Source: Candidatus Woesebacteria bacterium UBA1430 (lineage in GTDB: Bacteria > Patescibacteriota > Microgenomatia > UBA8517). From it: a stretch of DNA of 64,000 nt. The stretch lies in NCBI GenBank assembly GCA_002329465.1, contig DCTW01000004.1, forward strand, positions 2,933 through 66,932, in the 5' to 3' direction. Shown in pieces: positions 55,406 to 64,000 of this stretch (its first letter is position 1; each line of letters starts with the position of its first letter). The position numbers were made by a program, and so were the translations under genes. Below the pieces are notes generated by a model that made no database searches, was not told where the DNA came from, and saw only the letters and a program-made list of their open reading frames with translations.

Positions 55406-55885
55406 TTACCACCTAAAATGCGAGAAAGCCTTGTTCGCTTCGGCAATTCTTTCTACCTCCTGCTTCTTTTTGATAGCAACGCCCTCACCGTTTGAGGCTT
55501 CAACAAGCTCGGTAGCAAGTTTTTCGGCATAAGTATGAAACTCACTATTTGGCCTACTTCTTGCGGCAGTAATTAACCACCGTATAGCAAGAGAATCCTG
55601 ACGGCTACCTCTCACAGGCATGGGCACCTGATAAGCAGCGCCTCCTACTCTTCTCGGACGTACCTCCATAGTAGGCCTCATATTCTCAAGCGCCCTTTTG
55701 AATACTTCCAAAGGATTCTCTTTAGTCCGCTCCTTTATAATCTCAAAAGCTCTATAAACTTGTTTTTGAGAAACAGACTTTTTTCCGTCCTTCATCGATC
55801 TATTAATAAGCTTAGCCACCATAAAATCATTGTATAAAGGATCGAGCTCAACTTTTTTTTGTTTTATATAACCTCGTCTAGGCAT
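55406..55885 (-). CDS. rpsG: 30S ribosomal protein S7
   Basis: MPRRGYIKQKKVELDPLYN ... ends AFSHFRW. Confidence 0.95.
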   Translation of the reverse strand: MPRRGYIKQKKVELDPLYNDFMVAKLINRSMKDGKKSVSQKQVYRAFEIIKERTKENPLEVFKRALENMRPTMEVRPRRVGGAAYQVPMPVRGSRQDSLAIRWLITAARSRPNSEFHTYAEKLATELVEASNGEGVAIKKKQEVERIAEANKAFSHFRW

Positions 55886-55894
55886 AATGTTTCT

Positions 55895-56350
55895 TTACTC
55901 CTCTCCTCCTTCAGCATTAGAGCTCCCCCCGCCAGTTGCTATTCCCTGCTTTTTAGTACCATATCTTGATCTGGAAGTTTTCCTTCCCACCACTCCTCTT
56001 GCATCATATTTACCTCTAACAACCTGATACCTTACTCCGGGCAAGTCCTTAACACGTCCCGATCTAACCAAAACAATAGAGTGCTCCGATATCTCATGTC
56101 CCTCACCCGGAATATATGCTGTTACCTCCTGTTTATTCGAAAGCCTTACACGAGCAACTTTACGCAAAGCGGAGTTTGGCTTTCTTGGCGTCATTGTCCT
56201 TACAGACAAAACAACACCCCGCTTAAACGGCGAAGAATAAACCTTATAAATTCTATCCTTCGCGTTAAACCACTTCTTCAAGGCTACGCTTCTAGCCTTT
56301 TTAATTTGTTTTTTTCTGGGTTTTCGTACTAATTGAGAAACTGTTGGCAT
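55895..56350 (-). CDS. rpsL: 30S ribosomal protein S12 (with internal insertion and acidic C-terminal tail)
   Basis: [12 protein letters not shown] ... [17 protein letters not shown] ... [11 protein letters not shown]. At 151 aa it is longer than the usual ~125. Confidence 0.94.
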
Positions 56351-56362
56351 ATTAATTAAAAT

Positions 56363-59300
56363 TTAAAGCATCGCCCTTTCAGGCGAAACAGGTATAAGCC
56401 TACCAATAATTACATTTTCTTTCAAGCCAATAAGCTTATCAGTTCTACCCATTAATGCCGAATCGGAAAGTACATCTGTCGTTTGCTGAAAACTTGCTGC
56501 AGAAAGCCAGCTCTCGGTATACATCGCCCTTCTGGTAATCCCAAGTATTATCTGTGAAGCAGTAGCAGCCTCTCCTCCTGCCGCCAAAACTCTCTCGTTT
56601 TCCTCTTCAAATTTTGCCTTCTCAGTTTGTTCACCAGGAAGAAGATCAGTATCTCCCGCAGTAATTATCTTAACCTCATCACTCATTTTTCTAACTATCA
56701 CCTCAAAATGTCTGTCATTGATTGGTATTCCCTGTGATTCATAAACAGCTTGAAGCTCTGTTACTAAATATTCCTGTGCCGCCTTAAGCCCTTTAATTAA
56801 CAAAATTTCCTTAATATCAAGGTATCCACTTGAAAGCTGGACTCCCACTTCCACGTTCTCTCCGTCCTCTACCATCAACTTCTGGGTTTTAGGAACAAAA
56901 TACTCTCTCTCTTCAGGTGGCTTTGCACCGGAATTTCTAATAATCACATTCCACCCGACTTCTGTCTCCTCAATCTTAACTTTCCCGGAAATTTCAGCCA
57001 AAGAAGATTGAATCTTAGGGTTTCTCGATTCAAAAAGCTCTTCAACTCTAGGCAAACCTTGCGTAACGTCAACTCCCACTACACCACCGCTATGCTTAGT
57101 TCTCATAGTAAGCTGCGTACCAGGCTCACCGATAGACTGAGCCGCCAGAACTCCCACCGGAGTACCAATATCAACAAGCTTCTTGGTAGATAAATCCCAT
57201 CCGTAACATTTTCTGCAAACGCCATATCTTGAATTACAAGTCAATGGAGAATAAATAGAAACCTGTGAAATATCGGCCTTTTCAATATCCGAAAGCTTTG
57301 TTTCCTCAATAATTTCACCCTTTGCAACTATAACTTTACCCTTTGCATCCTTTATATCGTTAGCGGCTACTCTTCCGACGATCCTTCTCAAAAACACCTT
57401 TGGCCTAGAAGATCTTGTAACCAAAAGTCCCTCTTCCGCACCACAGTCTTCCTCCCTTACAATGACATCGTGGGCAACATCTACAAGCCGGCGTGTAAGA
57501 TATCCTGCATCAGCAGTCTTAAGAGCAGTATCAGTCAGCCCTTTTCTTGCTCCACGGCTTCCGTTTACATACTCATACACAGAAAGTCCCTCTCTAAAAT
57601 TAGACTTAACAGGAAGCTCAACCACCTTTCCCAAAGGATCTACAACAAGACCGATCATTCCGGAAAGCTGCTTAATCTGCTCTCTGGAAGTTCTACCCAC
57701 TTTAGCATCAATCACCATCCTAATAGACCCAATAGGATCAACAAGGTCCCAAGTTTTATCAGCTATCTCCTCTGTAGTCTCAATCCAAATACTCTCTGTT
57801 AGCCTCTTTTTCTCCTCACGGGTTATAAGCCCCTGAGCAAAATTGCTCTCCACGTCGGAAACACGCTTATTTGCCCTCTCAATAATTTTATCCTTTTCTG
57901 GATGAACTATCGCATCGGTAATTCCAAAAGAAAGTCCGGATATTGTCCCTCCCATAAAACCAAGGTCTTTAATATCGTCAATCATTCCGACAAGCTCCTC
58001 GTGAGTCACCTTACTAAAAGCATCATCAATAATTCTTTTAATAACATCCGAGCTTACATTTTCGTTAACATAATCAAATTGAGGCGGTAATATCTCATTA
58101 AACAAAATTCTTCCAGGCGTAGTTTCAATAATTTTTCCATTGTATCTTACCGATATCTTCTGTCTAAGATTAACTTTTGAAAGCCCATAAGCCAAAATCA
58201 CCTCATTAAAATCAGAAAAGATAACATTAGATTTGGTAATACGCTCGTCAAGGCTGGTCAAGAAATAAAGTCCAAGAGCTATTTCTTTAGAGGCAGGAGC
58301 AGCCATCGGGGACCCATCTGCCGGTCTTAACATATTCTTATCCGACATCATAAGCTCAATAGACTCGCGTATAGCATTTTTTGATAAAGGCAAATGAACA
58401 GCCATCTGATCCCCGTCAAAATCGGCGTTGTAGCCTTTACACACCGCCGGGTGCAAACGTATCGCATTACCCTCAATAAGTACCGGATAAAAAGATTGAA
58501 AACCAAGCTTATGAAGAGTCGGCGCCCTGTTCAAAAGAACTGGATGGTTCTTCGTTATTTCCTCAAGTATATCAAAGACTTCGGAAGGTCTCCTCTCAAG
58601 CATATTTTTTGCACTCTTCACGTTCGGGGCTATACCTCTTGAAATCATTTCACGAAGAACAAATGGTTTTGCTATCTCCAAAGCCATCTCTTTTGGAATA
58701 CCGCACTGATTTAGTTTAAGCTCAGGACCTACGACAATAACACTTCTACCCGAATAATCAACCCGCTTACCCAATAAATTTTGTCGAAATCTTCCTTGCT
58801 TACCACGAAGCATATCGGACAACGATCTCAAGGGCTGTCTTCCCCTGCCTCTTCTGGTTGCTTTTCTCTGCGATGCGTCAATCAAAGAATCTACAGATTC
58901 CTGAAGCATCCTTTTTTCATTCCTCAAAATAATCTCAGGCGCTCCAAGAGAAATAAGATGCTTAAGCCTATTATTTCTATTAATCACCCTTCGATAAAGA
59001 TCGTTCAAATCGCTCGTCGCAAACCTACCTCCTGAAAGCTGAACCATAGGCCTCAAATCCGGAGGTAAAACAGGAAGAACCTTAAGAATCATCCAAGACG
59101 GATCTATCTTTGCATCTCTCATTCCGTCAATTATCTTAAGCCGCTTTGTTAATTTTACGTATCTAGGGCCTTTACCTTTAATTTCTTTGAGTTCTTTTCT
59201 TATTTCCTTAGAAAGCTCTTCAAGATTAATGCTCTTAAGCACCTCAAGCACGGCCTCGGCACCCATCTTCACTTCAACAAAATCGGCAACGCCGTATCCA

Positions 59301-62300
59301 TAAAGCTTGTCATATTCATCCTCCGTCAAAAATCCATACTTTTTAATATCTTTAATAAGCTGTTTAATTTTCTGAAAAAGGTCATCTGTCTTCTCAATCG
59401 AACTTTTTTCTTCCTCAGCAATTGAAGTTGTCTTCTTTCGCAATCCCAAATCCACCTCACCCAACGCCAAAGCGAGCTGGTCCTTGTCTTTAACTCTGGA
59501 CTTAACACGCTCTTTTCGCTCCTTTGCATCTGTTTCTACAATCTGCTTTTGATCTCGGTATATATCTCTTATCTCCTTTATCTTCTCAACATGAATATTT
59601 TCAATATTCTTAAGCGCCTCTTTTCTCAATTCCTCATCAACACTCATAACCATATATCTGGCAAAATAAACAACCTGTTCAACCGCCCGAGGCGGAAGCC
59701 CAAGAAGAAGTGAAACTTTCGATGGTGCACCTTTAAAGTACCAAACATGGACAACCGGTGCCGCAAGTTCAATATGGCCCATTCTTTCTCTTCTAACCCT
59801 AGACTCTGTTACTTCAACACCGCACTTATCACATACAACACCTTTGTATCTGATTCTTTTATATTTACCGCAATAACATTCATAATCCTTTGTAGGACCG
59901 AATATTCTCTCGTCAAAAAGACCGTCTTTTTCAGGCTTTAACGTTCTATAGTTAATAGTCTCGGGTTTTATAACTTCACCCCTAGACCAAGCTCTTATTT
60001 CCTCAGGTGAAGCAAGTTTAATCTGTAAAGAAGTAATATCATCCAAGCTCTTAAGTACAGCCAAAGGGTCCATTTTTTGGTCACTTTTTATCTCCATACT
60101 TTCCAATTCCCGGCCATTTTCCTCTTCACCTTCCTCTTTCATTGCAACTCTTCCCTCAATATTCACGGACAATCCAAGTGAATTAAGCTCCCTAATCAAT
60201 ACTTTAAAGCTCTCAGGAACCCGTGCCTCAGGAATAGGCTCGCCCTTCACTATTGCACCAAAAGCCTGGGCACGCCCAATAATGTCATCTGACTTAATTG
60301 TAAGCATCTCTTGCAAAGCATAAGCAGCCCTATGAGCTTCAAGCGCCCAAACCTCCATCTCACCAAGTCTTTGTCCACCCATTTGTGCCTTTCCGCCTAA
60401 AGGCTGTTGTGTCACTAGCGAATATGGTCCTGTCGAACGAGCATGGGTTTTATCCTCAATCATGTGCTTAAGTTTAAGGATATAACCCACACCGACCACA
60501 GTATTCTCCTCAAAAGCTTCACCTGTCCTACCGTCAAAAAGCTTTGCTTTACCGTCAACCGGAAGCCCCGCTGATTTAAGCTCTTTTGTAATTACATCCT
60601 CGGATATACGGTCAAAAACCGGTATCGCGCCTTTCTCGCCCTTTTTGCTCAAAGCCCATCCAAGATGAGCTTCAAGAAGCTGTCCCAAATTCATACGAGC
60701 CAACACAGATAATGGAGAAATAATTATGTCAACCGGAGTTCCGTCTTCCAAATATGGCATATCCTCCTCTGGAAGAATACGTGCAATCACACCTTTATTT
60801 CCATGCCTACCGGCTAATTTATCTCCAACCATCACCTTTCTAAGCTGCGCAACTTTTACGATCACGCTTTTTATCACCCCTGGACCCAGCTCGTCACCCT
60901 TATCTTTATCTAAAATATTCACATCAACAACTATACCGCCTTCTCCATGTGGAACTCTCAAAGAAGTGTCCCTAACTTCACGAGCCTTCTCTCCAAAAAT
61001 AGCTCTTAGAAGCCTCTCTTCTGAGGTTAATTCCGTCTCACCTTTAGGCGCAATTTTTCCAACCAGAATATCGTTCGGCCCCACCTCAGCACCTATCACA
61101 ACAATCCCGTCCTCAGCAAGATTAGCGAGCTCCTGCTCGGCAACGTTTGGAATATCCCGAGTCAACTCCTCAGGACCCAATTTAGTTTCTACAACATCCG
61201 CTTGATATTCCTTAATATGAACCGATGTCAAAAGATCATCCTTTACAAGTTTGCTGGAAACCAAAATTGCGTCCTCAAATCCATATCCTTCAAAACTTGC
61301 ATAAGCTACAACCAAATTCTGCCCCAAAGCAAGCTCTCCCGATTCGCAAGAAGGTCCGTCTGCTAAAAGATCTCCCTTTTTAACCTTCGCTCCAACATTT
61401 ACTACTGCCTTCTGATTATAAGACGTTGACTGCGAAGTTCTCTTAAACTTAGTCAAAAAATAAGTTATCTTTTTACCGCCGTCGCTTATCTCAATATTAG
61501 CTCCATAATTTCCATTACTCTCAATTTTCTTTTCAAGCTTCACATCAATCCGCTCAGCATCAACATGCGTTACCGTCCCGGGATAAAAAGCCCTTATTAC
61601 CCTACCCATCGCTCCGGCCACAATCTCCTCCATACCTGTACCCACAACTGGCGAGGAAGGTCTGATCAAAGGAACGGCCTGACACTGCATATTGCTACCC
61701 ATAAGAGCTCTATTCCCATGGTCATTTGGCAAAAATGGAATCAAGGCAGCAGAAGCGCCAAACACCTGCCTGGGGGTCAAATCAATTAAATCAACCAGAC
61801 TGGAAGGCCCCTCCACAAAAGTCCCTTTATACCTATAAGCAAGTCTTTTTTCTTGGATAAACCCACGCTTATCAAACGTGACATCTGAATGAGTAATGTG
61901 ATAATTCTCTTCATCATCAGCCGTTAAATAAACCGTCTCATCAGTTACCCTTACCTCGGTTTTTCCTTTTACCTTTACCTTTTCTGCTTTTCTATAAGGA
62001 GATTCAATAAAACCATATTCATTTATATGAGCATATAAAGCAAGATATGTAACAAGTCCAATATTCGGGCCCTCAGGACTTCTTACAGGATCAATCCTTC
62101 CATATTGGGAAGAATTAATATCACGTATTGAAAACGAAGCCCTTTCTCGATTTATACCCCCAGGACCCAAAACCGATACGCGCCTGAGATTATCAATCTC
62201 GCTTAAAGGATTTGTGTCATCAAGTATCGTCGAAAGTTGATTTGACCTAAAAAACTCGTTAATTGAAGCAATCAAAGGTCTTGCATTAATAAGATTCTGA

Positions 62301-63391
62301 GGCTGAGGTTTATCGTCTGGTGAAATAAGGCTCATCTTCTCCTTAACGGATCTTTCAAGCCTCAAAAGTCCCACTCTAAATGCATGAGTAGCTACAAGCT
62401 CGCCAACTCTTCTTAATCTTCTATTCGCAAGGTGATCAATATCGTCAATTTCACCCACACCGTTTTGAAGACCGACCAAATAAGATATTGTGTTTACAAA
62501 GTCCTCTTTTATCAAAACCCAATTTTGTTCATCATTCGGAACATCCTGCCCAAGCTTCTTGTTTATCTTATATCTCCCCACACGACCCAGGTCATACCTT
62601 CTGTGATCAAAAAACAAACTATTAAACAAACCCTCGGCATTTTCCAAAACAGCCGGCTCACCCGGTCTTAACTTCCTGTAAATTTCCAAAAGCGCTTCTT
62701 CGCGAGTCGAAGATAAATCTTTTGCCAAAGTTGTTTTTATGTACTGATGTTCTTTGTTTGTATCTACATCCGTAAATAAATTCAAAATATCCTTGTTATT
62801 TTCATAACCAAGTGCACGAAGAATTGTAGCCGCATTTATTTTTCTTCTTTTATCAATTCTTGCCCATATAACATCGTTTTTATTTATTTCAAACTCAAGC
62901 CAACTACCACGAAGAGGCCTTACTTCAGCCATATAAAGCATCCTCCCGGAAGTTGTATCCTGTTCTCCCGAAAAATAAACACCGGAGGATCTTACAAGCT
63001 GATTAATGACGGTTCTTTCTATGCCGTTTATAATAAACGTCCCGGAAGCCGTCATTTGGGGGAGATTGCCCAAGAACACCTCTTGGTCAATCCTCTCACC
63101 GGTATTTTTATTAATCAGACTCGTCTGAATCTTAAACGGAGCCGAATATGTCAAACCTTTTTCAATAGCACTCTTTGGAGTAATTTCAGGCTCCTCAAGC
63201 GTATGCTCGCCCAAAACAAGCTGCCAATTCTTTCCGGTAAAATCGTCAATAGGACTTATGTGAGAAATTTCAGAAGCAATTCCCTCCGACAAAAACCACT
63301 GCCAGCTCTCTCTCTGAATAAGAGATAGATCAAGCTCTGGCAGGTTTTTCTCCTCTTTACCAAAATTACGCCGCTTATTGTTATCCGCCAT
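56363..63391 (-). CDS. rpoBC: fused DNA-directed RNA polymerase beta-beta' subunit (RpoB-RpoC single ORF, 2342 aa)
   Basis: Single uninterrupted ORF. Residues 1 to ~1080 are RpoB-like (GNRALMGSNMQCQAVPL, GEMEVWALEAH). A linker RVAMKEEGEEENGRELESMEIKSDQK is encoded at 60151-60074. Residues 1107-2342 are RpoC-like (zinc motif CYCGKYKRIRYKGVVCDKCGVEVT, catalytic NADFDGDQM). Confidence 0.9.
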   Translation of the reverse strand: MADNNKRRNFGKEEKNLPELDLSLIQRESWQWFLSEGIASEISHISPIDDFTGKNWQLVLGEHTLEEPEITPKSAIEKGLTYSAPFKIQTSLINKNTGERIDQEVFLGNLPQMTASGTFIINGIERTVINQLVRSSGVYFSGEQDTTSGRMLYMAEVRPLRGSWLEFEINKNDVIWARIDKRRKINAATILRALGYENNKDILNLFTDVDTNKEHQYIKTTLAKDLSSTREEALLEIYRKLRPGEPAVLENAEGLFNSLFFDHRRYDLGRVGRYKINKKLGQDVPNDEQNWVLIKEDFVNTISYLVGLQNGVGEIDDIDHLANRRLRRVGELVATHAFRVGLLRLERSVKEKMSLISPDDKPQPQNLINARPLIASINEFFRSNQLSTILDDTNPLSEIDNLRRVSVLGPGGINRERASFSIRDINSSQYGRIDPVRSPEGPNIGLVTYLALYAHINEYGFIESPYRKAEKVKVKGKTEVRVTDETVYLTADDEENYHITHSDVTFDKRGFIQEKRLAYRYKGTFVEGPSSLVDLIDLTPRQVFGASAALIPFLPNDHGNRALMGSNMQCQAVPLIRPSSPVVGTGMEEIVAGAMGRVIRAFYPGTVTHVDAERIDVKLEKKIESNGNYGANIEISDGGKKITYFLTKFKRTSQSTSYNQKAVVNVGAKVKKGDLLADGPSCESGELALGQNLVVAYASFEGYGFEDAILVSSKLVKDDLLTSVHIKEYQADVVETKLGPEELTRDIPNVAEQELANLAEDGIVVIGAEVGPNDILVGKIAPKGETELTSEERLLRAIFGEKAREVRDTSLRVPHGEGGIVVDVNILDKDKGDELGPGVIKSVIVKVAQLRKVMVGDKLAGRHGNKGVIARILPEEDMPYLEDGTPVDIIISPLSVLARMNLGQLLEAHLGWALSKKGEKGAIPVFDRISEDVITKELKSAGLPVDGKAKLFDGRTGEAFEENTVVGVGYILKLKHMIEDKTHARSTGPYSLVTQQPLGGKAQMGGQRLGEMEVWALEAHRAAYALQEMLTIKSDDIIGRAQAFGAIVKGEPIPEARVPESFKVLIRELNSLGLSVNIEGRVAMKEEGEEENGRELESMEIKSDQKMDPLAVLKSLDDITSLQIKLASPEEIRAWSRGEVIKPETINYRTLKPEKDGLFDERIFGPTKDYECYCGKYKRIRYKGVVCDKCGVEVTESRVRRERMGHIELAAPVVHVWYFKGAPSKVSLLLGLPPRAVEQVVYFARYMVMSVDEELRKEALKNIENIHVEKIKEIRDIYRDQKQIVETDAKERKERVKSRVKDKDQLALALGEVDLGLRKKTTSIAEEEKSSIEKTDDLFQKIKQLIKDIKKYGFLTEDEYDKLYGYGVADFVEVKMGAEAVLEVLKSINLEELSKEIRKELKEIKGKGPRYVKLTKRLKIIDGMRDAKIDPSWMILKVLPVLPPDLRPMVQLSGGRFATSDLNDLYRRVINRNNRLKHLISLGAPEIILRNEKRMLQESVDSLIDASQRKATRRGRGRQPLRSLSDMLRGKQGRFRQNLLGKRVDYSGRSVIVVGPELKLNQCGIPKEMALEIAKPFVLREMISRGIAPNVKSAKNMLERRPSEVFDILEEITKNHPVLLNRAPTLHKLGFQSFYPVLIEGNAIRLHPAVCKGYNADFDGDQMAVHLPLSKNAIRESIELMMSDKNMLRPADGSPMAAPASKEIALGLYFLTSLDERITKSNVIFSDFNEVILAYGLSKVNLRQKISVRYNGKIIETTPGRILFNEILPPQFDYVNENVSSDVIKRIIDDAFSKVTHEELVGMIDDIKDLGFMGGTISGLSFGITDAIVHPEKDKIIERANKRVSDVESNFAQGLITREEKKRLTESIWIETTEEIADKTWDLVDPIGSIRMVIDAKVGRTSREQIKQLSGMIGLVVDPLGKVVELPVKSNFREGLSVYEYVNGSRGARKGLTDTALKTADAGYLTRRLVDVAHDVIVREEDCGAEEGLLVTRSSRPKVFLRRIVGRVAANDIKDAKGKVIVAKGEIIEETKLSDIEKADISQVSIYSPLTCNSRYGVCRKCYGWDLSTKKLVDIGTPVGVLAAQSIGEPGTQLTMRTKHSGGVVGVDVTQGLPRVEELFESRNPKIQSSLAEISGKVKIEETEVGWNVIIRNSGAKPPEEREYFVPKTQKLMVEDGENVEVGVQLSSGYLDIKEILLIKGLKAAQEYLVTELQAVYESQGIPINDRHFEVIVRKMSDEVKIITAGDTDLLPGEQTEKAKFEEENERVLAAGGEAATASQIILGITRRAMYTESWLSAASFQQTTDVLSDSALMGRTDKLIGLKENVIIGRLIPVSPERAML

Positions 63392-63479
63392 GAGGTATAT
63401 AATATTCCTTTTTTTTGGGAGTAAATAAAATGCCCGCCGCCGCGAGCCAATTTAGCCTACTCCAGTACGCCTAGTCTGA

Positions 63480-63507
63480 ATTATACTAAAGACAAATTAC
63501 ATGTCAA
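63480..63507 (-). promoter_or_regulatory. near-consensus sigma70-type promoter upstream of rpoBC
   Basis: Minus strand reads TTGACA (63507-63502), a 16-nt spacer, then TATAAT (63485-63480), about 90 nt upstream of the ATG. Confidence 0.5.
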
Positions 63508-63527
63508 GTACAAACTATAAGTTACCA

Positions 63528-64000
63528 TCAACGTAAATATTTGTCTACATTGTCATTATGCTCTTCAAGCGTCTTTGCAAAATGTATATTTCCCTCTAAA
63601 TCATGAACATAAAACCAATACTCATTATCTCTATAATTTAAAACCGCCTCCAAAGAAGAAAGACCGGGATTCGCAATCGGAGAAGGAGGAAGCCCCGCAT
63701 ATTTATATGTATTGTAAATCGACAAAGAACCCAAATCTTCTTTGGTTAATGGCCTTGGCCACCAATCACAATCTTCTAACTCCCGCCCTCTACAACGTTC
63801 GCTGGCAACGGCATACTGAACGGTCGCATCAGCATCCAAAGTCCAGCCGGATTCAATCCTTTTCATATAAACACCGGCAACATCTTCCCGTTCGTCGAAA
63901 TTCCGGGTCTCTCTTTCAACAATAGAAGCCAGAGTAACAATTTCATCTAAACTAAGCTTCGTTGAATGCGTACCTATGTCAAACTTTTTATCAAAAGTAT
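63528..64000 (-). CDS. mltG: endolytic murein transglycosylase MltG (YceG-like), C-terminal part; 5' end beyond window
   Basis: LASIVERET ... DATVQYA ... YNTYKYAGLPPSPIANPG motifs. I confirmed that the reading frame stays open upstream of the listed Met through to position 64000. Confidence 0.85.
   Translation of the reverse strand, partial: TFDKKFDIGTHSTKLSLDEIVTLASIVERETRNFDEREDVAGVYMKRIESGWTLDADATVQYAVASERCRGRELEDCDWWPRPLTKEDLGSLSIYNTYKYAGLPPSPIANPGLSSLEAVLNYRDNEYWFYVHDLEGNIHFAKTLEEHNDNVDKYLR

Follow-up and report, generated by a model that had tools for sequence, protein, structure and literature searches.

A conserved fusion of rpoB and rpoC in a clade of Woesebacteria, with a probable single-chain β-β' RNA polymerase product

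A stretch of 64,000 nucleotides (nt) from the genome of Candidatus Woesebacteria bacterium UBA1430 (contig DCTW01000004.1 of assembly GCA_002329465.1, positions 2,933 to 66,932; this whole stretch is hereafter called the window) carries one open reading frame (ORF) that runs from the N-terminus of RNA polymerase subunit β (RpoB) to the C-terminus of subunit β' (RpoC). Does this frame represent a true gene and a single protein, or does it conceal two separately made subunits, a decaying copy or a sequencing error? We found that rpoB and rpoC are joined here in one real gene, rpoBC, which encodes a complete β and a complete β'. With good confidence we read its product as a single β-linker-β' chain that assembles with a separate α2 into an ordinary RNA polymerase core, the fusion having arisen from adjoining genes and been inherited by a clade. 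The gene and its parts are as follows.

56363-63391, minus strand: rpoBC, 2342 codons plus stop, with an ATG start at 63391; identified from the ORF list, the translation, the order of Pfam and NCBIfam matches and fused homologues
60152-63391, minus strand: β (RpoB) part, amino acids (aa) 1-1080, delimited by the PRK00405 match and an alignment with Escherichia coli
60074-60151, minus strand: linker, aa 1081-1106, RVAMKEEGEEENGRELESMEIKSDQK; acidic, non-conserved, predicted coil, without a counterpart in E. coli β or β'
56363-60073, minus strand: β' (RpoC) part, aa 1107-2342 plus stop, with the TIGR02386 match and the zinc and catalytic motifs; Met1107 lies at nt 60073

The translation contained no internal stop across its 2342 aa. 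On the β side, the Pfam domains Rpb2_1, Rpb2_2, Rpb2_3, external-1, Rpb2_6 and Rpb2_7 (PF04563, PF04561, PF04565, PF10385, PF00562 and PF04560) followed one another in canonical order over aa 65-1078, and on the β' side Rpb1_1, Rpb1_2, Rpb1_3 and Rpb1_5 covered aa 1118-2272. The NCBIfam equivalog model for rpoB, PRK00405 (NF001616), matched aa 6-1079 with profile positions 2-1095 of 1096 (1397 bits; cut-off 896), and the RpoB model TIGR02013 scored 1399.7 bits (cut-off 801). For rpoC, the equivalog TIGR02386 matched aa 1122-2335 with positions 2-1138 of 1147 (1513 bits; cut-off 963.5). The β' translation holds the zinc motif CYCGKY...CDKCG and the Mg2+-binding catalytic motif NADFDGDQM (KGYNADFDGDQMAVHLPL). 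Pairwise alignment with E. coli K-12 (locus L084) gave 51% identity for β and 49% for β'; homology with β stopped at ...SLGLSVNIEG (aa 1080), and homology with β' resumed at DPLAVLKSL (aa 1108). A 7-kb open frame that spans two essential genes cannot be accounted for by chance. An initial annotation of this DNA had already placed rpoB and rpoC in one ORF of 2342 codons, with an acidic linker of 26 residues at nt 60151-60074 and Met1107 at nt 60073. These coordinates proved exact; the fusion was borne out by the ORF list, the translation, the domain order and at least 66 fused homologues, and the acidic linker by the alignment and its D/E content.

The homologues came from a search of ~5.8 billion protein clusters with sources in NCBI, JGI, ENA and the Logan assemblies. 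It yielded at least 66 full-length fused homologue clusters (90% identity) of 2304-2366 aa, which were 59-97% identical to the window protein at 99-100% query coverage. All of them keep the frame open through the junction despite differing linker length and sequence. One protein with 97% identity (P0001) is encoded on CP055307.1 (GCA_013374835.1), a closed single record of 901,682 bp. An independent Logan contig encodes it as well, and the two loci share the gene context sortase-ruvX-x-yceG-rpoBC-rpsL-rpsG-fusA-tuf. The 90% cluster that holds the window protein itself has members from NCBI, JGI, ENA and Logan. The homologue records are named 'Candidatus Woesebacteria bacterium' or 'Patescibacteria group bacterium'; taken with a G+C content of ~40% and genomes of ~0.9 Mb, these names assign the organism to the Woesebacteria/Microgenomates within the Patescibacteria. 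Public records call these 2300-aa proteins just 'subunit beta' or "subunit beta'". By architecture, that is one ORF with a complete β followed by β' and kept in relatives, the gene belongs to the natural β-β' fusions.

Conservation ends sharply at the linker. Counted from ...LGLxIxIEG through the residue before the DPL motif, the linkers of 63 main-clade members ranged from 4 to 56 aa with a median of 22, and the window protein had 27 aa by that count. The linker is rich in E and K, and D+E make up 26% of it compared with 15% of the whole protein in the same 63 members. Not a single position of the linker was conserved, and its flanks (...LGLxIxIEG on one side, DPLxxLxxLxDFxSLxIKLASP on the other) were nearly invariant. 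In an AlphaFold model of a 232-residue junction fragment, the linker had no secondary structure, and segment residues 98-112 (protein aa ~1086-1100) scored less than 50 in the predicted local distance difference test (pLDDT). The linker is predicted to be flexible or unstructured. Since linkers are as short as 4 residues, the ends of β and β' must lie close together in the folded enzyme, which agrees with the function of a synthetic E. coli fusion discussed below.

How could the two genes have become one? A search with the N-terminal 340 aa of β' retrieved mostly contig-end fragments, whose N-termini reveal the unfused state. In these unfused relatives (60-63% identical, some of them named Woesebacteria or Curtissbacteria), RpoC opens with a Met right at the junction motif (MEPLANLRTLTDFQSL...; pattern M-E-P-L-x-x-L), and the boundary that the initial annotation had drawn at Met1107 coincides with this RpoC start. 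In the unfused locus L086 the gene order sortase-ruvX-x-yceG-rpoB-rpoC is as in the fused loci; its rpoB encodes 1122 aa with the acidic tail ...GGAYEDGEIEEAEVEEGAEKKEAEVLTEVSPEEGEEKENGTTSKS*, and this tail, which is in a different frame, has a 23-nt overlap with the rpoC ATG. In a second unfused locus, L087, rpoB (1125 aa) has its stop 2 nt before the rpoC ATG. The acidic RpoB tail of the closest unfused relatives measures ~40 residues. As the genes of unfused relatives overlap or abut and β ends in an acidic tail, the ancestral state was presumably a tightly coupled overlapping pair. A small indel or the loss of the stop at such a junction would have brought rpoB and rpoC into one frame; the former acidic tail of β would have become the linker and the former start Met of rpoC an internal residue, matching Met1107. 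The fusion would then have passed to the whole clade, with the linker free to change in sequence as well as in length but the frame never broken. This route of origin is partly documented. The window linker contains 'EEGEEENG' and the RpoB tail of L086 contains 'EEGEEKENG', but this resemblance was rejected as a sign of homology, these being low-complexity acidic sequences. In L087 (6001-9715; ENA contig_48318), gene calling divided rpoC between two ORFs that overlap (495 and 749 aa); this is probably a frameshift error of the long-read assembly and not a split of β' like that of cyanobacteria.

We asked how often such fusions have arisen. In a neighbour-joining tree of 77 fused and 80 unfused sequences, built from 300 residues of β', the window-type fusions formed one clade adjoining unfused sequences of the MEPL type. 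A second fused group from Microgenomates (P0064-P0066; ~2305 aa) joined this clade in 0 of 100 bootstraps. Its β' has a short N-terminus without the DPLxxLxxL helix, as have its own unfused neighbours, and the gene context of one member (P0065), sortase-ruvX-x-yceG-rpoBC-rpsL-rpsG, is the same as in the window clade. A third fused type (P0067, P0124 and L041; ~2250 aa), one of whose genomes (L041) is named Candidatus Paceibacterota, has a very short junction and likewise a short-type β' N-terminus without the helix; it too grouped with the window clade in 0 of 100 bootstraps. Both groups share the architecture and the superphylum of the window protein. Judged from the tree and the N-termini, they most likely represent separate fusion events, and β-β' fusion most likely has at least three origins inside Patescibacteria.

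As a control we used 80 arbitrary bacteria chosen via the universal motifs LQEMLTIK and PETINYRT, which do not form a random sample. The two genes were fused at 2 of these 80 loci (L041, and L055 from Helicobacter muridarum) and separate at the remaining 78, the latter including six other Patescibacteria genomes. At all 78 separate loci rpoB and rpoC lie in the same frame, a selection effect of the set. When 1.84 billion representatives of 50% identity clusters were searched exhaustively with HMMER, aa 507-1706 serving as query, the matches listed included more than 20 distinct clusters of β-β' fusions with lengths of 2031-2859 aa. Such fusion has arisen many times even though few genomes carry it: the rarity asserted by the initial annotation holds when genomes are counted, but not when fusion clusters or the origins within Patescibacteria are.

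The representative search also returned four metagenomic proteins from outside the window (P0143, 2241 aa; P0147, 2309 aa; P0155, 2031 aa; P0164, 1948 aa) in which an RpoA N-terminal domain (RNA_pol_L and RNA_pol_A_bac, aa ~15-230) is followed by Rpb2 and then Rpb1 domains. In P0143, which is encoded alone on a 7-kb Logan contig (L088, 45-6770), a second match, to RNA_pol_L_2, lies at aa 234-301. From their domain order, the four look like natural, strongly reduced single-chain α-β-β' RNA polymerases.

Is the fusion in the window related to those described before? In Helicobacter and Wolinella, the RNA polymerase β and β' subunits are made as one polypeptide (PMC1557499; PMC3294249); the single polypeptide has been shown in the cell for Helicobacter only, according to the citation of Zakharova 1998 in PMC3294249. 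The likeness is close. One ORF joins the β C-terminus to the β' N-terminus via a short, non-conserved linker, an architecture that we also observed in the control H. muridarum, and the fusion marks a clade whose relatives have overlapping genes: L086 here, Campylobacter there, to go by the title of Zakharova 1999 (cited in PMC1557499 and PMC3294249). However, the Helicobacter protein of ~2890 aa contains proteobacterial inserts that the window protein lacks, the linker sequences are unrelated, and the phylum is another. The Wolbachia-type fusion is likewise a single-ORF β-β' in a bacterium with a reduced genome, but it is alphaproteobacterial, has a profile of ~2839 positions and is of independent origin. 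The Helicobacter-type model PRK09603 (NF007172) matched the window protein in six separate stretches with 2112 bits (cut-off 5372), and the Wolbachia-type model PRK14844 (NF011417) scored 1974 bits (cut-off 4632). With both scores far below cut-off, the window protein falls into neither fusion family, and on these profile matches its fusion is not related by descent to those of Helicobacter or Wolbachia. The initial annotation had cited both as precedents, which is apt for the architecture but not for the orthologous family.

Fusions have also been engineered. The rpoB and rpoC of E. coli remain functional when fused synthetically (bioRxiv 10.1101/2021.11.05.467461), and Severinov et al. 1997 tethered the E. 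coli large subunits, as cited in that preprint and in PMC2939025. Such constructs are artificial, with a designed linker, and have not been naturally selected, but they show that the polymerase can assemble and work with the C-terminus of β joined to the N-terminus of β'. This gives a mechanistic reason to regard the natural fusion as a functional enzyme. No fused β-β' chain was present among the best 60 matches in the PDB, and a full-text literature search brought up no paper that describes rpoB fused to rpoC in the candidate phyla radiation (CPR), Patescibacteria or Woesebacteria. The patescibacterial fusion is real and conserved and appears to be undescribed, its architecture as such being already known.

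We propose that translation from the ATG at 63391 would give a polypeptide of ~260 kDa comprising a complete β, a flexible acidic linker and a complete β', and that this chain would join the separately encoded α dimer to form an otherwise ordinary bacterial core enzyme. The tether would set β and β' at 1:1 and make the last assembly step (α2β + β') intramolecular. By analogy, the tether may be of benefit by making assembly more robust: H. pylori becomes sensitive to urea when its fusion is split, as reported in PMC3927596 with reference to Dailidiene 2007.

The fused ORF might still give rise to two proteins, if β' were made separately by an internal start at Met1107 or released by proteolysis of the linker. 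Met1107 falls exactly where rpoC began in the ancestor, the linker, predicted to be unstructured, would be accessible to proteases, and many genes in the window have no obvious Shine-Dalgarno sequence, so that the absence of one at Met1107 is not decisive alone. However, the residue before DPL was a Met in just 2 of the 63 clade members (T, V, S, A, N etc. in the others). Internal initiation therefore cannot be a conserved feature. The initial annotation had described a junction without stop, Shine-Dalgarno sequence or gap, and so we found it: the frame is unbroken, there is no GGAGG-like motif 5-10 nt upstream of Met1107, and the sole upstream GGAG, 18 nt from the ATG, is too far away. Nor did a consensus scan detect any promoter-like site above chance near the rpoB/rpoC junction. 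On these three counts, a separate β' from a conserved internal start seems unlikely. Moreover, all homologues have kept the frame over linkers of 4-56 aa, as selection for read-through predicts, and the Helicobacter precedent is one polypeptide. We consider two separate products improbable, and a single chain remains our reading of rpoBC.

Much less probable still is that rpoBC is a redundant copy or one in decay, with working separate rpoB and rpoC genes elsewhere in the genome, of which only 64 kb were open to inspection. Against this, both halves score far above the equivalog cut-offs with their hallmark motifs intact, and their identity with E. coli β and β' is about one half. The gene occupies the canonical position before rpsL-rpsG-fusA-tuf, behind a conserved promoter-like site. 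Its conservation in a clade that has diverged to 59% identity implies purifying selection, and duplicates are rarely retained in genomes of ~0.9 Mb.

An assembly, sequencing or gene-calling error, for example a 1-nt indel that deleted the rpoB stop, is effectively refuted: one wrong base would suffice at an overlapping rpoB/rpoC junction such as that of L086, but the 97%-identical protein has the same 2342 aa in two independent sources, a closed NCBI genome and a Logan assembly, members of the 90% cluster also come from JGI and ENA, the fusion recurs with differing linker lengths in all of another 65 diverged homologues sampled widely, and the same test on the 80 control genomes correctly showed stops in 78.

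Some points nevertheless weigh against a single-chain enzyme inherited from one fusion. The single-chain product is, in this lineage, deduced from sequence and analogy. The AlphaFold model of the junction is of low confidence overall (mean pLDDT 59.9), so that calling the linker disordered relies mainly on its composition and variability. The monophyly of the main fused clade reached a modest bootstrap of 59 of 100 in the 300-residue segment. Strictly speaking, an extra separate rpoB or rpoC could lie beyond the 64-kb window. Finally, the fusion could be nearly neutral, since the split H. pylori enzyme of Raudonikiene 1999 was reportedly viable.

The initial annotation had regarded both halves as short and had attributed this to the loss of lineage-specific insertions, which an alignment to separate RpoB and RpoC sequences was to map. 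In this alignment, the stretches absent relative to E. coli (β 225-343, 938-1037 and 1123-1176; β' 943-1131 and the β' C-terminal tail) matched the inserts βi4, βi9, βi11 and β'i6, and the β half lacks those three β inserts only. All four are lineage-specific inserts of E. coli, of 119, 99, 54 and 188 aa, respectively (PMC2939025). The comparison therefore shows gains in E. coli and not losses here. Solved chains from Firmicutes and cyanobacteria in the PDB are of similar length (β 1100-1193 aa; β' 1161-1199 aa); halves of ~1080 and ~1236 aa are of ordinary size, and the supposed loss has to be dropped. The β' part also carries an insert of its own.

59369-59647, minus strand: insert of 93 residues in β' domain 1, aa 1249-1341, charged and helical-looking, extra after E. 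coli β' residue 146; EELRKEALKNIENIHVEKIKEIRD...

This insert was present throughout the fused clade and in the unfused relatives, and absent from E. coli and Firmicutes β'. The Pfam domain Rpb1_1 is stretched over 422 aa for a profile of 312 positions. In the insert region, mycobacterial β' chains aligned in one stretch and Firmicutes chains were split. We take its position to be the site of the actinobacterial β' clamp insert.

The surroundings of rpoBC, including the gene for the separate α subunit, comprise the following features.

63480-63507, minus strand: promoter-like TTGACA-16-TATAAT, matching the sigma-70 consensus at 12 of 12 positions in a scan and ending ~89 nt before the rpoBC ATG
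63432-63447, minus strand: GC-rich hairpin followed by a T-rich tract, attenuator-like, found as a terminator-like match in the rpoBC leader
55895-56350, minus strand: rpsL, ORF of 151 aa that starts 12 nt after the rpoBC stop
55406-55885, minus strand: rpsG, ORF of 159 aa
53234-55399, minus strand: fusA, ORF of 721 aa
37477-38391, minus strand: rpoA, separate α gene of 304 aa with the Pfam domains RNA_pol_L, RNA_pol_A_bac and RNA_pol_A_CTD

Two loci, L082 from the relative with 97% identity and the unfused L086, have kept both promoter hexamers ahead of rpoB(C) and, with sequence changes, the stem of the leader hairpin. This leader arrangement looks like an attenuator, as is found upstream of E. 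coli rpoB. ORFs of equal length to rpsL, rpsG and fusA carry the Pfam S12, S7 and EF-G domains in L082.

Upstream of rpoB(C), the genes sortase-ruvX-small ORF-yceG (mltG) take the place of the usual rplKAJL (window 63392-64000; L082, L086 and L089), a context common to the fused and unfused Microgenomates examined. The rpoBC, str, S10, spc and alpha ribosomal protein operons are contiguous on the minus strand from ~37 kb to 63 kb. Nearly all long ORFs of the window lie on this strand, and the GC skew was strongly negative in every 2-kb bin from 1 to 64000 (-0.13 to -0.40), gene orientation and skew being strongly co-directional. An Rfam scan of the window revealed one tRNA and no rRNA.

The fusion reveals no new mechanism. 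As a genomic change that is both clean and rare, it serves as a marker for one clade of the Woesebacteria/Microgenomates, whose relationships are poorly resolved. For annotation and phylogenomics, it matters that the fused proteins match two single-copy markers (TIGR02013 and TIGR02386) and that neither existing fusion model recognises them. A compact, naturally tethered enzyme without the E. coli inserts could suit structural or assembly work on CPR transcription. Repeated tethering of β and β' from overlapping junctions extends the story of Campylobacter and Helicobacter to another bacterial branch. More speculatively, and to our mind doubtfully, tethering might have been selected repeatedly as an adaptation in ultra-small Patescibacteria, as opposed to being a neutral accident, and might compensate for reduced assembly or proteostasis functions (e.g. 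a weak or missing ω, or few chaperones). If this were true, it would, together with the α-β-β' proteins, point to a general evolutionary route to single-polypeptide forms of multisubunit RNA polymerases.

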